A DNA stretch of 32,000 nucleotides, from positions 2,460,001 to 2,492,000 of the forward strand of contig NC_010296.1 in NCBI RefSeq assembly GCF_000010625.1, read 5' to 3'. The notes under the pieces were generated by a model. That model searched no databases. It saw only the letters and a list, made by a program, of their open reading frames with translations, and was not told the DNA's origin. Shown piece by piece: positions 4,006-30,983 of this stretch. This stretch comes from Microcystis aeruginosa NIES-843. Its GTDB lineage: Bacteria > Cyanobacteriota > Cyanobacteriia > Cyanobacteriales > Microcystaceae. A program made the translations under genes and the position numbers. Numbering within the stretch: position 1 is the stretch's first letter; every line of letters starts with the position of its first letter.

Positions 4006-4835
4006 TCAGGGTGTTGGGGTGTTGGGGTGTTGGGGTGTTGGGGTGTTAGGGTGTTAGGGTGTTAGGGTTTTAGGGTGTTAGGGTGTTAGGGTTTTAGTTG
4101 AAATTCCCCATTCCCCCATTTCCCCATTTCCCCATTTCCCCATTTCCCCACTTCCCCACTTCCCCACTTCCCTGTTTTTGGCCATAAAAAACTAACACTC
4201 GATCGAGAAGGGAGCGAGTTTAGTCAATTTAGTTATTTTACAGTTAATCCCGGGATCAGGCTAAATGCGCTGTAATAAAGATTTACCGTGGGAATCGGTG
4301 CTACAGGTGGCGAATAGGTGTTAGGGTTTTAGGGTGTTAGGGTGTTAGGGTTTTAGTTGAAATTCCCCATTTCCCCATTTCCCCATTTCCCCACTTCCCC
4401 ACTTCCCCACTTCCCTGTTTTTGGCCATAAAAAACTAACACTCGATCGAGAAGGGAGCGAGTTTAGTCAATTTAGTTATTTTACAGTTAATCCCGGGATC
4501 AGGCTAAATGCGCTGTAATAAAGATTTACCGTGGGAATCGGTGCTACAGGTGGCGAATAGGTGTTAGGGTTTTAGGGTGTTAGGGTGTTAGGGTTTTAGT
4601 TGAAATTCCCCATTTCCCCATTCCCCCATTTCCCCATTTCCCCATTTCCCCATTTCCCCACTTCCCCACTTCCCCACTTCCCCACTTCCCTGTTTTTGGC
4701 CATAAAAAACTAACACTCGATCGAGAAGGGAGCGAGTTTAGTCAATTTAGTTATTTTACAGTTAATCCCGGGATCAGGCTAAATGCGCTGTAATAAAGAT
4801 TTACCGTGGGAATCGGTGCTACAGGTGGCAAATAA
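4006..4835. repeat. tandem triplication (units 4006-4317, 4318-4560, 4561-4835) with internal 8-nt microsatellites
   Basis: CGAATAG recurs at 4311 and 4554, giving a 243-bp period. The third unit, 275 bp, merges into the real 3' end of the PHP gene. Each unit contains (GGTGTTAG/GGTTTTAG)n, (CCCCATTT)n, (CCCCACTT)n, a unique ~110-bp core, and a copy of the last 19 codons of ORF 4779..5462. Confidence 0.9.
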
Positions 4836-5531: not shown

Positions 5532-5827
5532 TGGGTAGCTGCTGTTACCACTAATACTAAATCCTGTTTCAAAGGTGTGGGGAAGTGGGGAAGTAGGGAA
5601 GTGGGGAAATGGGGAAATGGGGAAATGGGGGAATGGGGAATTTCAACTATAGCGTTTCCTGTTCGCAAGAGGTACACTATCGATGTTGAAAAGCTTAATT
5701 AGCAAAGGTTTAAGTGTGCCACACAGGTGTGAGAACCGCTATAAAACCCTAACACCCTAACACCCTAACACCCTAACACCCCACACCCCACACCCTGCCC
5801 CCAGGAAAAACTTTTTGCCGCAAACCC
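5532..5827. repeat. mosaic MITE-like repeat with 8-nt and 7-nt STR tracts
   Basis: (GGGGAAGT)n(GGGGAAAT)n at 5576-5650 is the inverted copy of 4094-4172. (CCCTAACA)4(CCCCACA)2 is followed by CCCTGCCCCCAGGAAAAACTTTTTGCCGCAAACCC, the family-A right TIR, ending at 5827. The left boundary is uncertain. Confidence 0.55.
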
Positions 5828-7256: not shown

Positions 7257-8946
7257 TAGCGTTAATATCTCGGTCATGGTGAGTCCCACAGTCTGGACAG
7301 TCCCATTCTCGAACATTTAACGGCATTTTCAAGGGCAATATACCCGCAATTACTACACCTTTTAGAGCTAGGAAACCATCTATCTATTTCGATGTAATTT
7401 CTCCCATACCAACGGCATTTATAGGCTAATTGTCGGGTGATTTCTCCCCAGCTTACATCAGATATTGCCTGAGATAATTTCGGGTTTTTGACCATATTCT
7501 TGACGGCTAAATTCTCAACCACAATCGTTTGGTTTTCACGAACTAATTGAGTGGTTAGCTTATGTAAATGGTCTTTTCTACTATCGGTGATTTGAGCGTG
7601 AATCTTGGCTACTTTGATTCTTGCTTTTTCCCGATTTTTTGACCCTTTCTGTTTTCTAGAAAGGCTTTTTTGGGCCTTTCGCAGTCTCCGATAATGCTTT
7701 TTAAAATGCTTGGGATTAGACACTTTATCGCCATCGCTGGTAATCACGAGGCTACTAATTCCTAATGGGACTTAAACAAATTTCAAGCCCAAACAAAGCC
7801 TAAACTGGCTTTGTAAGCGGCAAACACATCCCGATTCTCGGTCAGCCACTCAAAGAAACGGAAAGACATCGCTGTCCGAAAAGCTTCCAAGGCTTCCACA
7901 AAAGTGTTTAAAGGTCGATTCGCCCACCGCCTTTGCAATCCCCCAGTTAACTTATGCCACAGGATAAATGTATAGGCACAAAACACCAGGATAAAATGAC
8001 GAAGTAAGCTTCGTTTATCCCTGACTTGATATTCCCTTAACCCTAACCATCCTTTGGCTTCTCGGTAGAATACTTCCACCCAATTTCTTTCGGTGTAAGT
8101 CCTCACTATCCACGAAGCTGTTACTGTATCTGCCTCAACTACATTGGTGATGAAATAGTCCACCTCTGTGGCTTTTTCCATTGAACTTGCATTCATGACG
8201 ATCGCCAAGTTCCTTTCTCCTTCTAGTTGAGATATTTTCGCTCTGAATACCGCTACCCAAACCGTTTTCTCTTTATCTAGATTTAGGGTGATTTTCTCCC
8301 AATCCTTTTCTGATAGGCTTTTTGCTAGTTGCTCAAGCTGGATTGTTTCTTCCACACCCCCTTCTTTTTCAATAATTACTTTTCGATTTTTTGCCAATCC
8401 TCCTAAGTATTTTAGCTTTCTTTCTTCCAGGGCTTTGAGAAAATTTGTGTTGTTGCCATAACCAGCATCTATTAAGACGATTTTCGGTCGATAGCCTCTG
8501 GTTAAGCTCCGGTCAATTAAATCTATCGCTATCTCTGGTTTCTTCTTAAATTCTTTGTCTTCTTTCCCCTCGGCTAAGGAACTAGCCGGTTGATAAATTT
8601 CAATGTCTAGGGGGACACTTTTTTTGCCGTCGTAGAGATGAGTAGTGACGGCGACTATTCCGTTGTCTGTCTTGCCAATTTCTCCTAGGTACTGCCTGCC
8701 AACTCCGGCGGTCAGATTGCCACTTTTTCGATGTCCTGAGTCATCGACAATCAGGGAAAATCCTCGGGGGATTTGCGTCTGGCGGCATTGGTTCATCACT
8801 TGCAACCGACATTCATTCACCTGACGGTCTGACCAAGGAGATTCGGTCAAAAAGTGATGTAATCGGTTATAAACTACTCCGACGGCATTATTGGCCATTT
8901 GAGTGAGGTTTTTCCTCTCACTTTCCCCTAATAATCCTCCTAAATA

Positions 8947-9944
8947 GGGCTGGCTGAATAAATCTAAAAACCTTGTTGGATAAGACTTTTGGACTTTTTT
9001 CCCCTCAAAAAGTACCAGATATGGGAGTGATCAGGGGTAAATTCAGGGACTTTTTCCCTGAAAATTAGGTAATTGACCCCCTCAAAATCGGTAAAACCCC
9101 ACACCCGTTACAGTAGAGCAGGAAGTCGCCTTCCCACCCCCTGCTTCAAAACCGGACTTACGACTTTCGCCGTATCCGGCTCCTGAGTAACTAGGCTACT
9201 GTCATTAGTAGAATAATAATGGGAATTATTATTTCCTTGTCTATTCAACCCTCTTGGCTGTATCCCCACCAGACAAGATTGTTGGTTTTAGGGCGTATAT
9301 GACCGTTGATTGTTGCTTAGACTTCCTAGTTACCCGTCCTTTGTCAGCATATCTTTGATATTACTCAAAGCCTTGGCTTTTAAGGACATCCTCTCCCTCT
9401 ATTGACTTGCGGATGGTTTCCTACTGCCCCGAACGGGCAGAGTCAATCAGGGTTACTTCGTTCCCTATAACCATTGGTTGAACCCTTAGGATGATACTGT
9501 CCACAACAGAGTAACGGGAATGCCTTACTGATAGTGGTATGAGCTATCAGCCCCAACTCTGTTAACTTTTGTTTCGAGCCTGTCAGCCTTTTGGCTCGTG
9601 GGTGTTGACGATGGTTAATTCGTATCTTCGCCCCAGGGCTATCCATAGGTTCTGGCTCAACGGGTTTCTGATTTAGGCTATCAGATACCGCTTTTTTTTT
9701 CCTCGCTCACTACCTCAGATGTACCAAGTCTAAAGCAGCAGGAAATGCCGTCACTCTAGGCATCTAGAGGACAGGACTAAGGTTATTACTAACCCGCACC
9801 TGTAGGGTTATAAAGTTATCAAGGTACTACATTTACCAAGCGGCTAATCCTCTAAACGTCTTACTGTCTAGTTTCTAGCCAACGAATCGCACCACACCCC
9901 ACACCCTACACCCTGCCCCTAGGAAAAACTTTTTCAGCAGACCC
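8947..9944 (-). mobile_element. family-A MITE copy A1 carrying a group II intron (998 bp; ~212 bp without the intron)
   Basis: Ends GGGCTGGCTGAATAAATC... and ...CTTTTTCAGCAGACCC form the TIR GGGTCTGCTGAAAA. Flanked by direct TAAATA at 8941-8946 and 9945-9950. Confidence 0.8.
9107..9892 (-). ncRNA. ORF-less group II intron, copy 1 (786 nt)
   Basis: 5' GUGCGAUUCG at 9892. Domain V GAGCCGGAUACGGCGAAAGUCGUAAGUCCGGUUU at 9182-9149. A domain VI-like helix with a GCGA loop and a bulged A. 3' end ...CUGUAAC at 9107. No RT-like ORF. Excision restores the (CCCCACA)n tract. Confidence 0.8.
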
Positions 9945-10543
9945 TAAATATTGTCTGAAGCCGTTTTTTTGCGCTTCGTTTTTGAAGCAATTGTCAAACC
10001 GCCGACACCATCGGTCAAAGCATGGGGGCATCGCGGCTGGGGTTGTCTCTTTCATCGCTGATCTTTCAACGTAAAGTGCTTATTCTTTAACAATTATACT
10101 CTATTATACTCTTGTTGATCGTTTAAGTCCCACTAGCATCACTGCTGAGAATTTCTGGCTCAACGAGTCCACTTGAATTAGATTCCTGGCGAAATCCAAC
10201 TCAGAGGTGGTTCTCTCCTCAGACTTTCGCGACCTTACAGAAGCCTGTTCTCCTATGCCCTACGATACAGTTCAAAACCTCTAAAATACGGTTCTTCGGT
10301 TTGTCTTATGCAACGTACAGGGTTATAAGGAATGAAACTCTCATAGAGAAAGACATTTGGCGATTTTTGTTAATTGTTTTCGATCTAGAGCGAACTAATC
10401 AATCAAATCTCTTACCAGATAAGGATTTAGTCGATTTATGCCACCCTATTGAACCATACCAAGTAACGAAGAACCTAAAATACTTGGTTTCTCTGGTACT
10501 TGACGCTGAGAATTTTTACCTATAAGTACCTAAGCAAAATTAA

Positions 10544-12229
10544 GGGACTTCCAGAGAATAAAATACCCAACAAAAAAATAGAAAAGTGTTTTTTTGAAAA
10601 AGTAATTATTTTTGTCTAGGAAAACAAAGAGTCTCCCATTATACCATTTTTCTTTATTTGCGTCACAACGAATGAAGGTTTGGCAAGCATTCGAGCGTGG
10701 ATGTCTGTCATGGATTTAGAAATTTGGTATTACAACCTATTTTTCCGAAAAAATAGGCAGCACAAACTCTTATACTTCCGAGCTTTTTCGAGTATAACAA
10801 GGACAAGTTAAAGAATCAAAGACAGTTTTTAGCTAACCATCTTAGTTAACTACAAACTAGGTCTTATCATAATAGATATCAATAAACCATTGTCCCAAAT
10901 CGGGAAAGTCTTGATTCGTTGATTCTGTGAGACGTTCGATTTTTTCTTCGATTTTTTCCATGGCTTTTTTAGTAAGCTTTACTCCTTTTTCATAAGTTTC
11001 AGTAATCAACTTAACAATCGGGTGTTTTCCTTTCCAAGTCATAGTTTGGGCGAATTTCAAAGCCGTTTCGATTTCATCTAAAATACTCCCATTCCAAGGG
11101 TTTTCTAACACAGCCCAGGTTCGTTCAATAGGATTATATTTACTATGGTAAGGGGGATAGTAAGCTAAACGTATATTAACTTGATATTTTTGGGAAAACT
11201 CAACTATACGTTTCATGAACTGAGTTCGTCTCGAATTATTTTCTGGTCCATTATCTTGATTAATTATCAAAGTTTTAATTTTCTCAAAACGAGATTTTTC
11301 CGACTCCCAGAAATCTTCTAATATATCAACAATAAAGTCACTGGTGACTGTGGAGGCAGTGAAATACAAAAACAACTCATCAAATTCTGGAATAAATATT
11401 CCGTAAGGGGTTAGGGTTGTTTTCGGATTAAAATCATGATCGTTTGTTTCGACAGTTATTCTATTCTTACCTCCTCGATCAAATAGTCCAATATTAACAC
11501 GGGCTTTGGCATCCAAACTAAGACGTAACATCGTAGGGTCTTCATCCGCTTCCCGATTAATGTTAGCTAATTCCTCAAAGATTGCCTCGGTTTCTGGAAT
11601 TTTTTTTGAGGTAAAACTTTAGCGACTCTTTTCAGACGATAACCTAAGTTATTTAATTTAACCCGAATAGTTTCCTCGCTCGGTAAATCCTCATCACTGT
11701 ACCCATATTTAGAGATTAATTGCTTTCGGACTTCGGCCGCACTCAGTCTCACATAAAGCCTTTGGCTTTTAAAACTTGGGTCAGTTTGGCTTTGAGAATC
11801 CACTAAACTTTTGATGTTTTCCAATAGAAAAGGTAAATGTTCTTCTGCTTTTTTCCGCCCCTTAGCTGAATGATTATCAACACAAATAATACCTCTTTTT
11901 AGTTCTTTAATTCCTTTACGAATAGTAGTTCGATTCCAGCCTAACTCCTGTGCAGCAAGGGTTTGTCCCCCATAGCCTAATTCTAAGACTGTTTGGGCCA
12001 TGAATCTTCTTTTAGCTGCACCTTTTAATTGAAGTGCAGTTTCACTGAGCAATTTCTTGAGGGAATCAGTTAATTCCATATACACTTACAAAGAAAAACT
12101 TGATTAATAATGTACAGGATTAATTCTACTACAAAATTGGAAGGAGGAGGCAACCATCGACCCCTACCTCCTACACTCCGAGAATGATTATTATTCTTGA
12201 GCATGAATAGTTTATTTTTTGGAAGTCCC
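10544..12229 (-). mobile_element. ISAzo13-like insertion sequence, 1686 bp, 3-bp TAA target duplication
   Basis: TIRs are GGGACTTCCAGAGAATAAA at 10544 and the reverse complement of 12211-12229, GGGACTTCCAAAAAATAAA. TAA is duplicated at 10541-10543 and 12230-12232. Joining the flanks rebuilds GCAAAATTAATTAC of the host MITE. Confidence 0.8.
10857..12085 (-). CDS. ISAzo13-family transposase in two frames (11567-12085 HTH part; 10857-11600 DDE part), joined by a -1 shift on an A8 run
   Basis: ORF1 ends ...LPQKKFQKPRQSLRN*. Re-reading one base back on CAAAAAAAAT (T-run 11600-11607 on the plus strand) gives ...LPQKKIPETEAIFEELANINREADEDPTMLRLSLDAKA..., continuous with ORF2. C-terminal motifs: IINQDNGPEN, YYPPYHSKYNPIERTW. 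Confidence 0.7.
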
Positions 12230-12309
12230 TAATTACACATATCTAACCACCTCTTGCCTCTTGCCTCTTGCCTATCTTCACTAGGAAATTAATTTTGCAC
12301 GACTACTTA

Positions 12310-13306
12310 GGGTTTGCTGAATAAATCTAAAAACCTTGTTGGATAAGACTTTTGGACTTTTTTCCCCTCAAAAAGTACCAGATATGGGAGTGATCAGGGG
12401 TAAATTCAGGGACTTTTTCCCTGAAAATTAGGTAATTGACCCCCTCAAAATCGGTCAAACCCCACACCCGTTACAGTAGAGCAGGAAGTCGCCTTCCCAC
12501 CCCCTGCTTCAAAACCGGACTTACGACTTTCGCCGTATCCGGCTCCTGAGTAACTAGGCTACTGTCATTAGTAGAATAATAATGGGAATTATTATTTCCT
12601 TGTCTATTCAACCCTCTTGGCTGTATCCCCACCAGACAAGATTGTTGGTTTTAGGGCGTATATGACCGTTGATTGTTGCTTAGACTTCCTAGTTACCCGT
12701 CCTTTGTCAGCATATCTTTGATATTACTCAAAGCCTTGGCTTTTAAGGACATCCTCTCCCTCTATTGACTTGCGGATGGTTTCCTACTGCCCCGAACGGG
12801 CAGAGTCAATCAGGGTTACTTCGTTCCCTATAACCATTGGTTGAACCATTAGGATGATACTGTCCACAACAGAGCAACGGGAATGCCTTACTGATAGTGG
12901 TGTAAGCTATCAGCCCCAACTCTGTTAACTTTTGTTTCGAGCCTGTCAGCCTTTTGGCTCGTGGGTGTTGACGATGGTTAATTCGTATCTTCGCCCCAGG
13001 GCTATCCATAAGTTCTGGCTCAACGGGTTTCTGATTTAGGCTATCAGATACCGCTTTTTTTTCCTCGCTCACTACCTCAGATGTACCAAGTCTAAAGCAG
13101 CAGGAAATGCCGTCACTCTAGGCATCTAGAGGACAGGACTAAGGTTATTACTAACCCGCACCTGTAGGGTTATAAAGTTATCAAGGTACTACATTTACCA
13201 AGCGGCTAATCCTCTAAACGTCTTACTGTCTAGTTTCTAGCCAACGAATCGCACCACACCCCACACCCTACACCCTGCCCCTAGGAAAAACTTTTTCAGC
13301 AGACCC
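12310..13306 (-). mobile_element. family-A MITE copy A2 carrying a group II intron (997 bp)
   Basis: Near-identical to 8947-9944. Flanked by direct TACTTA at 12304-12309 and 13307-13312. Confidence 0.8.
12470..13254 (-). ncRNA. ORF-less group II intron, copy 2 (785 nt)
   Basis: Same 5' GUGCG, domain V/VI and 3' end as copy 1. It differs by a handful of substitutions and one T in a homopolymer run. Confidence 0.8.
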
Positions 13307-13569
13307 TACTTAGGAGCATTCCCCTAGAGAACCCCATAACTCTAGTTTTCAAGGTGCGTTCATCGGTTGATGACTGGGTTTTTTAAGCGGTTGCTTACCC
13401 GGCCCCCTATTCTTAATATCATACATCAGATCAAGTCGCCCTCAAAGGGCGAGGCTTTAAACCCAATTTTTTGGTAATATATCAATTAACTGGCAAGATG
13501 GGCATGAGCAAGTTAACCCCTTTGGCTGTTAACCGTCCCGTCAAGCTGCTCTAGGGTAAAGATAATCCT

Positions 13570-15075
13570 ATGGCTACCATGAAACTAATTATCGGGGGAC
13601 GTTACCAGGTTATTAAACCTCTAAGTCAAGGGGCTTTCGGTCAAACTTTTTTAGCCCAAGATAACTATCGCCCCGGCCGTCCTCAATGTGTGGTCAAACA
13701 GTTAATCCCCCAAGTGGTTAACGAAGTTACTATAGGATTATTTGAGAGTGAGGCCAGAGCTTTAGAAAAACTCGGCCATCATCCTCAAATACCGCAATTT
13801 TTCGCCAGTTTTCAGGAAAATAAGTCTTTTTATATCGTTCAAGAATTTATCGATGGTCACGATCTTAGTCAGGAAATCTCTAAGGGTAAGCGTTTAGAAG
13901 AGAGTCAGGTAATTCAGTTATTAAAAGATATCTTGGAAGTTCTCGCTTTTGTCCATCAAAATAACATTATTCACCGAGATATCAAACCCCATAATATTAT
14001 CCGTCGCCAAGAGGGCCAGCTAGTTTTAATCGACTTTGGCGGAGTCAAACAAGTGGGGACTCAATGGCTAAAAGCAAAACAGACCAGTGTGTCTATTGGG
14101 ATTGGCACCCCTGGTTATATGCCTAGTGAACAGGCGCAAAATAAACCGCGATTGTCTAGCGATGTCTATGCCGTGGGAATCATCGCTATTCAAGCCTTGA
14201 CTGGTCTCAAACCGACGCAATTTCCCGAAGATGCCGAAACCGGAGAAATCGCTTGGCGCGATCAGGCCGATGTTAGAGATGATCTAGCAGTTATTATCGA
14301 TAAAATGACCCGTTATGACTGGCGCCAACGCTTTCCCTCGGCAGCAGAAGTTTTAGATGCCATAAAAGAGTTACTGCAATTGCGTCAACAACAAGCTTTA
14401 GTGCAGGAAATTTCAGCCGAGGAGTTGTTTTATCGCGGTAACGCGCATCTCGATTTGGGGCAGCATTGCGAAGCAGTTCAATTGTATCAGCAGTCCCTGC
14501 GGAAAAAGCCCAATTTTGTCAATGCTTGGTATAACCGCGGTCTGGCCTTGCAACGATTAGGGCGTTTTCCTGAAGCTTTAGGGTCTTTTAATCAGGTAAT
14601 TCAATTAGAGACTAATAATGCTCGGGCTTGGTTTTATCGCGGCATCGCTTTAGCTAATTTACGACAAATCAGCGCCGCAATCGCATCTTTGGATAAGGCG
14701 ATTCAACTGCAGCCAGATTATCTGGAAGCATGGCATTACAAAGGCATGATTTTCTGTCAGATGCAACGTTATGCCGAAGGTCTAGCGGCCTATAATCAGG
14801 CCCTGGCCATTAAATCCGATGCTAATGTTTGGTTTAGCAAAGGCGAAGCTTTACGGGAATTAGAACGACTCAGTGAAGCGGTCGCCGCTTATAATAAGGC
14901 TTTACAGTTACAATCCCAAAAGGCTGAGGCGTGGTATCAACGGGGTTGTTGTCTCTACAAGTTAAAATGTTTCTCGGAAGCAGTGGTTTCTTTTAACCAA
15001 ACCCTACAACTAGAGCCTAGCCATCAATTCGCTCTCCAACAACGGAATTTAGCCCTTAATCACCTGAAATTGTAG
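13570..15075 (+). CDS. Ser/Thr protein kinase with a C-terminal TPR repeat domain
   Basis: 501 aa. Hanks kinase motifs LSQGAFGQTF (Gly loop), VVKQL (Lys), HRDIKPHN, IDFGGVK and GTPGYMPSEQ. The C-terminal ~220 aa consist of repeated A/W/Y-x-G-x-A-L-type 34-aa TPR units. Confidence 0.9.
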   Translation: MATMKLIIGGRYQVIKPLSQGAFGQTFLAQDNYRPGRPQCVVKQLIPQVVNEVTIGLFESEARALEKLGHHPQIPQFFASFQENKSFYIVQEFIDGHDLSQEISKGKRLEESQVIQLLKDILEVLAFVHQNNIIHRDIKPHNIIRRQEGQLVLIDFGGVKQVGTQWLKAKQTSVSIGIGTPGYMPSEQAQNKPRLSSDVYAVGIIAIQALTGLKPTQFPEDAETGEIAWRDQADVRDDLAVIIDKMTRYDWRQRFPSAAEVLDAIKELLQLRQQQALVQEISAEELFYRGNAHLDLGQHCEAVQLYQQSLRKKPNFVNAWYNRGLALQRLGRFPEALGSFNQVIQLETNNARAWFYRGIALANLRQISAAIASLDKAIQLQPDYLEAWHYKGMIFCQMQRYAEGLAAYNQALAIKSDANVWFSKGEALRELERLSEAVAAYNKALQLQSQKAEAWYQRGCCLYKLKCFSEAVVSFNQTLQLEPSHQFALQQRNLALNHLKL

Positions 15076-20073: not shown

Positions 20074-21262
20074 TAATCCTTTGCTTTGCTGTGCATTGTA
20101 GTCATGGATAAAATACCAAAGGGCTCCCCAACGTGATTCTCCATTTTTTTAGAGAAAGATAGACTCTCTCTCACCAGCCGAGAAATCCTTTGTCGAAAGG
20201 TATTATTTAATCTTTCAATATCTGGACTTCCCCCATACAGAAATACTAAAAAATTAACAAAACCCTTACTGCCTGGAGCTTCTCAGAAAAAATTGAAAAG
20301 ACGCTACTGGGTACATTTTCCCTTTGAAAATGGCTGTACCGTTGACTGTATCTAGAGTAGAGCGATTCCGTAGAGTTGGCTGTATAGTGATCGCTAACCT
20401 TATTGTAACAGATGGTGTCATTAATCTCTAGAGTCAGCGATTCCCTCTGTAGCCATGTTTTTGCTGGTTTTCTGCCTGGAAACAAGCTATAATGGTCGAA
20501 GGGTCAAATTTGAAAAATTTTTCAAAATTTTGCCTCAAACCCTGTCTGCGTAAGGATTTCAGGAGTTTGTACCCAGTAGTTTATTAGTATTACATTGCTT
20601 TAACTCAGGCTCTGTAAGACTTTGAGCCATAGCTAGTATATTTATACGGGGGAAGTTCAGCAATATGATTAGTTTGACCAGTTTCTTTACCTACTGCCCG
20701 ATGACGTTTACTAGGAATTACTGTCTTATAGGACTCCCAAAAGTCTGTGTAAGCAACCGCGCATTGTCGGTAAACACCTGGTAAACTGGCCCCAAAGTTT
20801 TTTAGCTGATTGACGACTCCTATCTCCGCGCATAGCAACCAATAATTTCTCTTGTCTTTCTATCAATTAACCGCCAAATATAAACCTTTATCGTCTTAGA
20901 AAAAACCCAAGACCACATCTCATCACATTCTCTAACTAATTTACCTTTTAGTTTGTCCGAAACCTTTATTTGAAGGGGGACAGCCGCCAGTTTATTGTTG
21001 ACATAGTTTTGTAACCATGACCAACTTACCCCTGTTACTCTAGCAATTCCTCGCAAGGAAATTCGTTCGAGCAAGAGTTTATCAATTAATTGTTTGGTTT
21101 CGTCAGAGACGGTTTTATTAGTGGGATTGATCACCAACTGACGACCACACTCTTTACCTTGACGTTTGGGTTTTCCATTATGAATAGAACCATTCTTGAT
21201 AGTATGGTGAGAACCACAATTAGGACAGGGGAATAGAGGTGAAGGGGGTACTTTGTTCGGTG
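20074..21262 (-). pseudogene. IS1-family transposase (InsA zinc finger/HTH + InsB DDE), multiply frameshifted and split by a MITE
   Basis: ...PCPNCGSHHTIKNGSIHNGKPKRQGKECGRQLVINPTNKTVSDETKQLIDKLLLERISLRGIARVTGVSWSWL...DEMWSWV...IWRLIDRKTREIIGCY, then out-of-frame GDRSRQSAKKLW, then SLPGVYRQCAVAYTDFWESY...GKETGQTNHI. Across the MITE it continues ERLNNTFRQRISRLVRESLSFSKKMENH. No ATG was found for the zinc-finger frame. Confidence 0.7.
20222..20660. mobile_element. family-B MITE copy B1 (439 bp), 6-bp CAATAT duplication
   Basis: TIRs CTGGACTTCCCCCATACAG and CGGGGGAAGTTCAG. CAATAT at 20216-20221 and 20661-20666. Excision restores NHIERLNNT in the IS1 transposase frame. Near-identical twin at 24876-25304. 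Confidence 0.85.
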
Positions 21263-24853: not shown

Positions 24854-24875
24854 TAGCCGGTAAATTTGCTAATAA

Positions 24876-25304
24876 CTGGACTTCCCCCATACAGAAATAC
24901 TAAAAAATTAACAAAACCCTTACTGCCTGGAGCTTCTCAGAAAAAATTGAAAAGACGCTACTGGGTACATTTTCCCTTTGAAAATGGCTGTACCGTTGAC
25001 TGTATCTAGAGTAGAGCGATTCCGTAGAGTTGGCTGTATAGTGATCGCTAACCTTATTGTAACAGATGGGGTCATTAATCTCTAGAGTCAGCGATTCCCT
25101 CTGTAGCCATGTTTTTGATGGTTTTCTGCCCGGAAACAAGCTATAATGGTCGAAGGGTCAAATTTGAAAAATTTTGCCTCAAACCCTGTCTGCGTAAGGA
25201 TTTCAGGAGTTTGTACCCAGTAGTTTATTAGTATTACATTGCTTTAACTCAGGCTCTGTAAGACTTTGAGCCATAGCTAGTATATTTATACAGGGGAAGT
25301 TCAG
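24876..25304. mobile_element. family-B MITE copy B2 (429 bp), 6-bp TAATAA duplication
   Basis: Same TIRs as B1. TAATAA at 24870-24875 and 25305-25310. It differs from B1 by a 10-bp indel and a few substitutions. Confidence 0.85.
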
Positions 25305-25401
25305 TAATAAAATTATCGTCAATCTGCCCCGTTTTTTACCTAGAAGTTGGATCGTGTCTTTGATAGAAAAGCAATTTAAGCTATAACTAGAATCACGCCA
25401 A

Positions 25402-27195: not shown

Positions 27196-27410
27196 GGGTC
27201 TGCTGAATAAATCTAAAAACCTTGTTGGATAAGACTTTTGGACTTTTTTCCCCTCAAAAAGTGCCAGCCATTGCGGGGATCGGGGGGAAAATTCCTGGAC
27301 TTTTTCCCAGAAAATTAGGTAGTTGACCACCTGAAAATCGATAAAACCCCACACCCCACACCCCACACCCCACACCCTGCCACCACCGAAAAGCTTTTTG
27401 CCGCAAACCC
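27196..27410. mobile_element. family-A MITE copy A3 (215 bp, intron-free), 6-bp TAATTG duplication
   Basis: GGGTCTGCTGAATAAATC...(CCCCACA)4...GCTTTTTGCCGCAAACCC. TAATTG at 27190-27195 and 27411-27416. Confidence 0.8.
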
Positions 27411-27721
27411 TAATTGTCCCACTGAAGGTCAATCGGGGTAGAGAGTAAGATCCCGGGGCTGCCCGCGCATTTAATACTAAATCCGTTGAGTATAGGCTAC
27501 TTATGAGGATAGGCAAGAGGCAAGAGGCAAAAGGAGGAATAGAGAATCAGTCTTTAATAACTGGATTTAGTATAAATTGCCTGTTGAGATGAAACAAGAG
27601 GCAACAGTAAAGGGATTGGGAGAGATTCAGCTAATCTAAGGAGAGGCGATTAAAATGCCTCTTAGCTTAAAACCCCACACCCTGCCCCCGGGAAAAACTT
27701 TTTCAGCACACCCTATATATT

Positions 27722-30757: not shown

Positions 30758-30983
30758 GGGCTTGCTGAATAATGGTAAAACCCTTTTAAAATAAGGCTTT
30801 TGACCTGTTAAAGTCCGATGTTAGTGCAAGAAAATAGGATTGGGACTTTCAAAAACCTTGCATTATCCTTCTTGTGGTACATCGCTTGGTACAAAAAACA
30901 AGGGCAACAAAGCCTGAAACGACCGACTCCTGACTCCTGACTCCTGACTCCTACCCCCAGGAAAAACTTTTTCAGCAGACCCT
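30758..30983. mobile_element. family-A MITE variant A4 (226 bp) with a (CTCCTGA)n core, 6-bp TAGGTA duplication
   Basis: GGGCTTGCTGAATAATGG...(GACTCCT)4...CTTTTTCAGCAGACCC. TAGGTA at 30752-30757 and 30984-30989. Confidence 0.75.

Follow-up and report, generated by a model that had tools for sequence, protein, structure and literature searches.

Two transposable elements of the miniature inverted-repeat type (MITEs) of the cyanobacterium Microcystis aeruginosa NIES-843, designated MITE A and MITE B, each contain a group II intron, and we examined how the two intron-containing copies arose. Both lie in a stretch of 32,000 nucleotides (hereafter, the window; assembly GCF_000010625.1, contig NC_010296.1, positions 2,460,001 to 2,492,000 of the forward strand), to which all coordinates given without an accession or locus number refer. 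With a probability of about 0.85, we consider that the intron homed separately into the two MITEs when these were already in place, and that one arm of MITE B was in addition altered by gene conversion. This reading is based on the anatomy of the composites, on intron-free orthologues of both MITEs in a close relative, on the target of the intron, on many other insertion contexts and on the mosaic structure of an arm of MITE B, all of which were observed directly.

Structure of the two composite repeats

A direct repeat with 99.1% identity over 1002 bp was observed between 8945-9946 and 12308-13308. It comprises composite A (8947-9944) and composite B (12310-13306), which are placed in direct orientation with a spacing of 2365 bp. 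An initial annotation, made from the letters of the window, had described the two as ~99% identical and ~2.4 kb apart, and both estimates held. Each composite consists of a 212-bp MITE of a family designated A, inside which a 786-nt group II intron without an open reading frame (ORF) is inserted on the minus strand.

In composite A, the left arm of the MITE (160 bp; 8947-9106, plus strand) starts with the terminal inverted repeat (TIR) GGGCTGGCTGAA, ends with CCCCACA heptamers and corresponds to the 3' exon of the intron. Intron copy A (786 nt, with a GUGCG start and an AC end) occupies 9107-9892 on the minus strand, as assigned from Rfam and from its fold. The right arm (52 bp; 9893-9944, plus strand), which corresponds to the 5' exon, begins with heptamers and is closed by the TIR ...TTCAGCAGACCC. 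The target-site duplication (TSD) TAAATA flanks the element at 8941-8946 and 9945-9950, and the same duplication was found in Microcystis viridis NIES-102. Composite B is likewise made up of a left arm (12310-12469, plus strand), which has the B-specific terminus GGGTTTG and an inner 80 nt (12377-12456) of A type, an ORF-less intron copy of 785 nt (12470-13254, minus strand; assigned from Rfam and alignment) and a right arm (13255-13306, plus strand), between TACTTA duplications at 12304-12309 and 13307-13312. The duplications are the two that had been reported initially.

Over the 998-bp element, nine differences between A and B were counted, three in the arms and six in the intron. Two of the arm differences are at the left terminus (GGGCTGG in A versus GGGTTTG in B) and one is A versus C at 9093/12456. 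The intron differences comprise five substitutions and one poly-A length change, and the introns are 99.2% identical. The pair is not an assembly duplication, because junction A recurs in the environmental assembly L043 and junction B in L023, which are independent assemblies (L numbers denote fetched loci). The chance that one composite was duplicated by mis-assembly is thus negligible; the nine differences, the different flanks and the different TSDs are each consistent with NIES-102. Nothing speaks directly for such an artefact, although the chimera at L041 shows that assemblers struggle with this repeat. This locus (L041 106-1673; ENA ERZ28668926) holds two introns head to tail, not separated by any exon; the 5' flank of this dimer is that of site A, and its 3' exon has the B-specific C variant and is followed by diverging sequence. 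We rejected the dimer as a biological arrangement, and it is most likely a chimera of assembly.

The family-A MITE

Without the intron, the family-A MITE is a non-coding element of 212-215 bp, which carries TIRs of the form GGGyyTGCTGAAwAArT at both ends. The terminal-repeat motif matched 10 times in the window against 2.3 expected, and the 6-bp TANNTA duplications were perfect in 10 of the 16 complete copies examined. About 20 distinct copies, with 82-99% identity, were found across Microcystis loci, and among 185,579 species genomes a 22-mer of the MITE arm was present in Microcystis only. A third copy in the window (27196-27410, plus strand) has TAATTG flanks and no intron, and it matches the arms at 188/215 positions, in agreement with the diverged third copy noted initially.

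No transposase-bearing element with the MITE termini was found in the window. Ends of the form GGGyyTGCTGAA with different interiors were observed at 30758-30982 and, as solo termini, at 1958-1969 and 27702-27713. It is probable that several MITE families share a single transposase. At L007 7209-7415, a family-A MITE has the flanks TAAGTA and TACTTA, which are reverse complements and not direct repeats. This pattern is as expected from inversion by recombination between two inverted MITE copies. Furthermore, an intron-free left arm of A type, with 98.75% identity, was found in a Microcystis metagenome-assembled genome (SFCA01000231; L006 7805-7964). It ends after the heptamers and sits in an IS605 tnpB gene.

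Ribozyme features and coding capacity of the intron

The central part of the composite is a group II intron. The Rfam model RF00029 (Intron_gpII, domains V/VI) matched on the minus strand at 9107-9184 and 12470-12547 with 55 bits (gathering score, 40). Intron A runs from 9892 to 9107, and its GUGCG at 9892-9888 and AC at 9108-9107 fit the GUGYG/AY ends. Domain V is 34 nt long, has a GAAA loop and the catalytic AGC triad, and reads GAGCCGGAUACGGCGAAAGUCGUAAGUCCGGUUU. In the minimum-free-energy fold, domain VI is predicted to form a 15-bp helix with one bulged A located 8 nt from the 3' end. The fold of the intron had a z of -5.8 against shuffled sequences. For domains I-IV, the only match was a sub-threshold one to group-II-D1D4-2 (24.5 bits; cut-off, 36), and short core matches to other cyanobacterial introns were observed. 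After splicing, the predicted ligated exon junction across the MITE is GGGGTGTG joined to GGGTGTGG.

Domain IV consists of a 22-nt hairpin only. The longest ORFs in the intron encode 53-88 amino acids and matched no family (in copy A, the upper limit was 67 amino acids), and neither a reverse transcriptase (RT) nor a maturase was present. No ORF with RT motifs was found in the window or in the 48 fetched loci. The nearest ORF-bearing RNA relatives were those of other cyanobacteria, such as the Acaryochloris pREC1 intron with an RT-X-HNH protein, and they matched 14-19% of the intron, namely the conserved core only. A homologue search with the Acaryochloris RT-X-HNH protein returned no Microcystis entry among the best 120 of ~8000 matches, which says little on Microcystis. 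Microcystis genomes have been reported to encode group II intron RTs (PMC11448079).

Intron-free orthologues of both MITEs in NIES-102

M. viridis NIES-102 (AP019314.1:412260-433765; locus L019), which was reached via an identical kinase protein (window 13570-15075), shares 99.7% identity with the window across 6.5 kb of adjacent genes. At its site A, window positions 8685-9106 and 9892-10543 are contiguous (L019 6206-7278), with 3 differences in 1073 nt, and at its site B positions 12230-12469 and 13254-13416 are contiguous (L019 7276-7676). Site A reads CCTCC TAAATA GGGCTGG...AAAACCCCACACCC/CACACCCC...GACCC TAAATA TTGTC, where the slash marks the joint, and site B reads CGAC TACTTA GGGTTTG...GACCC TACTTA GGAGC. 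NIES-102 has both MITEs with the TSDs and the copy-specific termini of the window, and the arms are joined at the intron position with no intron between them. Since the TSDs of these intron-free orthologues are identical to those of the window, both MITE insertions predate the intron.

The simplest reading of the initial annotation had been that the MITE's transposase mobilised the composite as a unit: after a single intron insertion, the 1-kb composite would have been moved or copied to the second site. The arms of A and B in the window, which agree at 209/212 positions, and the 99.2% identity of the introns fit such a history, as do the different TSDs and flanks, and other family-A arms are only 82-93% identical. 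Nevertheless, this reading failed against NIES-102, where both sites hold intron-free MITEs with the same TSDs. The B terminus is GGGTTTG in both strains, unlike the GGGCTGG of A, and the arms of A and B in NIES-102 agree at 202/212 positions only. Furthermore, no pair of composites with common arms at unrelated loci was found among the 48 loci, and the differences between the two introns recur as polymorphisms in other copies instead of being private mutations, as described below. Transposition of the composite as a unit is therefore very improbable. The other option offered at that time, independent homing into sibling MITEs, was supported by the intron-free orthologues and by three further MITEs (L010, L046 and L047), which combine diverged arms with a near-identical intron.

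The same comparison could be read in the opposite direction, with the composites ancestral at both sites and NIES-102 having lost both introns by precise deletion, for example through conversion from intron-free MITEs. Such MITEs are plentiful as possible donors, and near the insertion site the window and NIES-102 have different sequences in arm B. However, two exact losses would be required. The two arms of MITE A match between the window and NIES-102 at 211/212 positions and show no conversion footprint, and a second copy of MITE A within an IS701-type element of NIES-102 is intron-free too. Moreover, a 3-nt deletion in arm B of NIES-102 is private to it and present in no potential donor, and the combination of a B-type terminus with an A-type interior in the window would be left unexplained. 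We thus regard precise loss as improbable.

Intron haplotypes and other insertions

Thirteen full-length intron copies from the window, NIES-102 and metagenomes were aligned. Intron A was of the consensus type. The five substitutions between A and B are clustered at intron positions 245-408. The B states at 245, 354 and 381 were also found in L009, a 5'-truncated and decayed copy, and L046 and L047 have the B state at 408; B has a single private state, 352T. Because private new mutations would be expected after duplication of a unit, these shared differences disfavour it. The alignment suggests either that the A and B introns are different pre-existing haplotypes or that B was patched by recombination with another copy.

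Further contexts were obtained by a scan of metagenomes with a 24-mer of domain V and by look-ups of the spurious ORFs of the intron. About 15 further insertion contexts were found in Microcystis genomes and metagenomes, all of them in heptamer arrays and most of them outside the family-A MITE. In L010, L046 and L047, other family-A MITEs contain an intron that is 98.5-99.7% identical to A, and their left arms match at 141-149/160 positions (88-93%). They clearly represent separate homing events, in which diverged copies of the MITE were entered at the same kind of register. We also considered, and ruled out, that each intron hosted by a MITE brings an A-type arm with it, as non-A sequence stands beside the intron in L046 and L047.

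About 12 contexts share only the heptamer 5' exon and the 3' G, and have 3' flanks such as GGGAGA, GGGAAG, GAAGGG, GCCCCC and GGGUUU. Homologous recombination cannot explain these contexts, because the 3' flanks diverge straight past the G or GGG. The pattern of the non-MITE insertions points to reverse splicing and reverse transcription. In NIES-102 itself, the intron occurs elsewhere in the chromosome, in a heptamer array that belongs to no MITE and holds two copies in tandem (L039, AP019314.1:5057491-5065673). The tandem introns (L039 3730-6838) are 21 nt, that is three heptamers, apart, and two insertions interrupt the upstream one, an 87-bp mini-element with palindromic ends at intron position 171 and a DDE_Tnp_1 insertion sequence (IS) of ~1.4 kb near position 244-263. 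The plasmid collection gave no match with the composite as the query, and the viral contigs gave none with the domain V 24-mer or the MITE 22-mer.

The initial annotation had further regarded the retroelement and the DNA transposon as coupled. This view remains valid only in the weaker sense that the MITE carries the homing site of the intron, a heptamer array; most intron copies lie outside the family-A MITE.

Heptamer arrays as the intron target

All 10 full-length copies with a readable 5' flank have the 5' exon GGGUGU-R-GGGUGUG, and the 3' exon begins with G in every copy. Exon-binding site 2 (EBS2), ACACCC at intron positions 288-293, is a perfect complement of intron-binding site 2 (IBS2), GGGUGU at exon positions -14 to -9. 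EBS1, CAUACC at intron positions 352-357, lies in the loop of the hairpin CUGAUAG...CUAUCAG and pairs with IBS1, GGUGUG at exon positions -6 to -1. On the minus strand of the window, these sites correspond in copy A to 9536-9541 (EBS1) and 9600-9605 (EBS2), as assigned from their pairing with IBS1 and IBS2, respectively, and in copy B, by alignment, to 12904-12899 (EBS1, UACACC) and 12968-12963 (EBS2). Four EBS1 variants were observed, CAUACC in A, UACACC in B, CACACC in L009 and UAUACC in L040, with the variable positions at 352 and 354. All four pair with GGUGUG via G-U wobble, and the assignment of EBS1 is supported by the finding that every copy variant keeps this pairing.

Judging from these exons, the homing site consists of two units of a (GGGGTGT)n array. 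The family-A MITE has four to five such heptamer units, which read CCCCACA on the other strand.

A mosaic arm in MITE B

Comparison of MITE B between the window and NIES-102 showed six differences in the inner 94 nt of the left arm (at 12377-12456), against a single one in the remaining 308 nt (Fisher p = 0.0008). Five of the six inner-arm differences make the window copy identical to A, and the B terminus is kept. In contrast, the inner arm of the NIES-102 copy has the common, probably ancestral, states of the family together with its private deletion. MITE A and MITE B are ~680 bp apart in NIES-102. These findings suggest that the inner left arm of the window copy was probably homogenised to A type by gene conversion from an A-type copy, a direction that we infer. 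L010, too, combines an inner arm resembling that of A with an outer arm of another kind.

The intron itself may or may not have been part of the converted tract: its inclusion is favoured because the converted arm adjoins the 3' end of the intron, and disfavoured because intron B was not copied from A in its present form. A stronger form of this idea is that MITE B obtained the intron together with ~90 nt of the adjacent arm from an A-type composite, by ectopic gene conversion or double-strand-break repair and with no reverse transcription. The order of the mosaic (B terminus, A-type inner arm at 12377-12456 beside the 3' end of the intron, and then the intron) is consistent with such a transfer, as are the clustering of the differences, the similar arrangement in L010 and the short distance between A and B in NIES-102. 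On the other hand, the B intron differs from A at the five clustered sites, four of which are shared elsewhere, and another donor or a second patch would be needed. In addition, L046 and L047 acquired introns without A-type sequence beside them, and the homogenisation of the arm could have been a separate MITE-to-MITE conversion. We therefore consider spread at the DNA level unlikely as the origin of intron B, while leaving it an appreciable chance.

A model for the spread of the intron

The preferred reading, separate homing followed or accompanied by conversion, would involve the following steps. By carrying the (CCCCACA)n array, the family-A MITE would multiply the landing sites. The ORF-less intron would recognise two consecutive heptamer units on the G-rich strand, through the pairings of EBS2 with GGGUGU and EBS1 with GGUGUG and through the 3' G, and would insert by reverse splicing and reverse transcription (retrohoming), with the reverse transcriptase presumably supplied in trans. 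MITE A and MITE B would have been in place first, and each would have been invaded separately in the lineage of the window strain, so that the composite would never have been moved by a transposase. Later or simultaneously, the inner left arm of B would have been converted to A type between the neighbouring direct repeats.

Several observations weigh against this reading. A full target in the intron-free third MITE, at 27349-27377 (minus strand, three registers), is unoccupied in the window, and a second full match to GGGTGT-R-GGGTGTG followed by G, at 5781-5795 on the minus strand, is also empty. Since both targets are empty, colonisation is incomplete. The empty target at 27349-27377 would mean that the intron invades inefficiently or began to do so recently, unless features beyond the 15 nt identified are required for recognition. 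Furthermore, only one relative with both MITEs was available, and gain versus precise loss was decided by parsimony. Finally, a related intron-encoded protein in Microcystis was not found in the window, the fetched loci or the homologue search, and retromobility is thus something that we infer.

A broader hypothesis is that the intron is specialised on a genome-wide (GGGGTGT)n repeat, which supplies IBS1 and IBS2 from one repeat unit, that the MITE is the main amplifier of landing sites and that the intron also passes between MITEs with arm sequence by gene conversion. We put this forward as speculation, and the combination as a whole is doubtful. If true, gene conversion would be an RT-independent route that keeps an ORF-less intron where no matching intron-encoded protein exists.

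Comparison with known systems

The arrangement resembles that of RmInt1 and ISRm2011-2 in Sinorhizobium meliloti (PMC1802570), where a multicopy transposable element likewise contains the homing site, its copies are colonised in turn by the intron through retrohoming, and occupied and empty copies coexist. However, RmInt1 encodes an RT-maturase and has a unique target in an IS, whereas the Microcystis intron is ORF-less, resides in a 212-bp non-autonomous MITE and has a tandem heptamer as its target, which also occurs outside the MITE. The TeI3 introns of Thermosynechococcus elongatus (Mohr, Ghanem and Lambowitz 2010; PMC2882425) are likewise cyanobacterial and ORF-less, with many near-identical copies and a presumed driver protein acting in trans. 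For T. elongatus, ORF-containing relatives, driver proteins and experimental mobility are known, whereas no related protein was found for the Microcystis intron; moreover, the TeI3 targets are diverged unique sites, unlike the simple tandem repeat observed here. Class C (IIC) introns also use a dispersed repeated motif, terminators or attC sites, as a landing site (Zimmerly and Semper 2015; PMC4424553). Their recognition relies on a DNA stem-loop with a short IBS1, and their domain V is shortened, whereas the Microcystis intron has EBS1 and EBS2 of normal length, which pair with a linear heptamer repeat, and a 34-nt domain V with a GAAA loop. The Microcystis intron is not of class C.

In bacteria, group II introns tend to occur in the company of other mobile DNAs, and those that lack an ORF are described as rare (PMC4424553). 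The MaeMITE families of M. aeruginosa NIES-843 have been described as multicopy elements of 176-429 bp with inverted-repeat ends (Kaneko et al. 2007; PMC2779907). The family-A MITE is alike in size to MaeMITEa (219 bp, 240 copies) and MaeMITEe (212 bp), with which it was compared by size only, and intron cargo in MaeMITEs is not mentioned there (PMC2779907). In the literature, we found no description of this intron or of an intron within a MITE in Microcystis. Particular to the Microcystis case are the simple tandem-heptamer target and the MITE as the host.

These results suggest that a retroelement nested in a DNA transposon need not move together with it, and that the transposon can instead multiply the homing site. 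The Microcystis intron joins the short list of proliferated bacterial ORF-less group II introns. With a target this simple and predictable, occupied and empty sites are easy to score across sequenced Microcystis strains, and such scoring would quantify gains and losses of the intron, as well as gene conversion, in natural bloom populations. For annotation, the composite accounts for a class of ~1-kb repeats at which Microcystis assemblies break.

Surrounding mobile elements and other repeats

Composite A is inserted in an IS701-family (ISMae34-like) element on the minus strand (7762-10136, with ends approximated from repeat matches), which is ~1.37 kb long without the composite. Its transposase matched Pfam DDE_5 (PF13546) with E = 4.5e-35. 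When composite A and one TAAATA were excised in silico, a continuous DDE_5 transposase reading frame was restored. MITE A is itself carried inside an IS copy, and because it disrupts the transposase of this host, the IS copy must be mobilised in trans. In NIES-102, an IS701-type element with MITE A at the same position of the transposase occurs at least twice (L019 6206-7278 and 17631-19215), with no intron in either.

Between the composites lies an ISAzo13-family IS of 1686 bp (10544-12229, minus strand; PF07592, E = 3.2e-58), which has the TIRs GGGACTTCC/GGAAGTCCC and a TAA duplication. Its transposase (DDE_Tnp_ISAZ013) is split into two ORFs. This element is missing from NIES-102, where a clean TAA site was observed. 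It is inserted in a ~100-bp TA-flanked MITE, termed family D in the initial annotation, the TIRs of which are AGTACCTAAGCAAAATTAA/TTAATTTTGCACGACTACT; the left part of this MITE is at approximately 10523/10525-10543 and the right part at 12230-12309. The small MITE was hit twice, by the ISAzo13 element and, at its right edge, by MITE B. The differing flanks described initially were accordingly confirmed, with A in an IS701-like transposase gene and B adjoining the family-D MITE.

Loci L030 (AP024565) and L032, from more distant strains, have neither MITE B nor the ~100-bp MITE, and show the empty site ACCTA/TAGGAGC. The small MITE is missing from AP024565 (L030 12484-12533) and from JADBTY01. 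From these comparisons, the order of events at site B would be an empty site, then the ~100-bp MITE, then MITE B (the NIES-102 state), and then the ISAzo13 element and the intron (the window). A deletion of 9945-12309 between the direct repeats, which had been predicted as an outcome of recombination, was not seen: NIES-102 keeps both MITEs and lacks ISAzo13 only, and L030 and L032 showed the ancestral empty state.

Two further sets of repeats were observed in the window. Large tandem arrays of 8-nt units, AGGGTGTT and TTCCCCAT, are present with inverted counterparts at 4008-4690 and 5578-5796; they form a 243-bp higher-order repeat between an ndhF-like gene and a PHP-domain gene. In addition, an unexplained 449-bp direct repeat with 96% identity, at 20217-20665 and 24871-25309, flanks genes for an IS630-type transposase, pfkB and a short-chain dehydrogenase.

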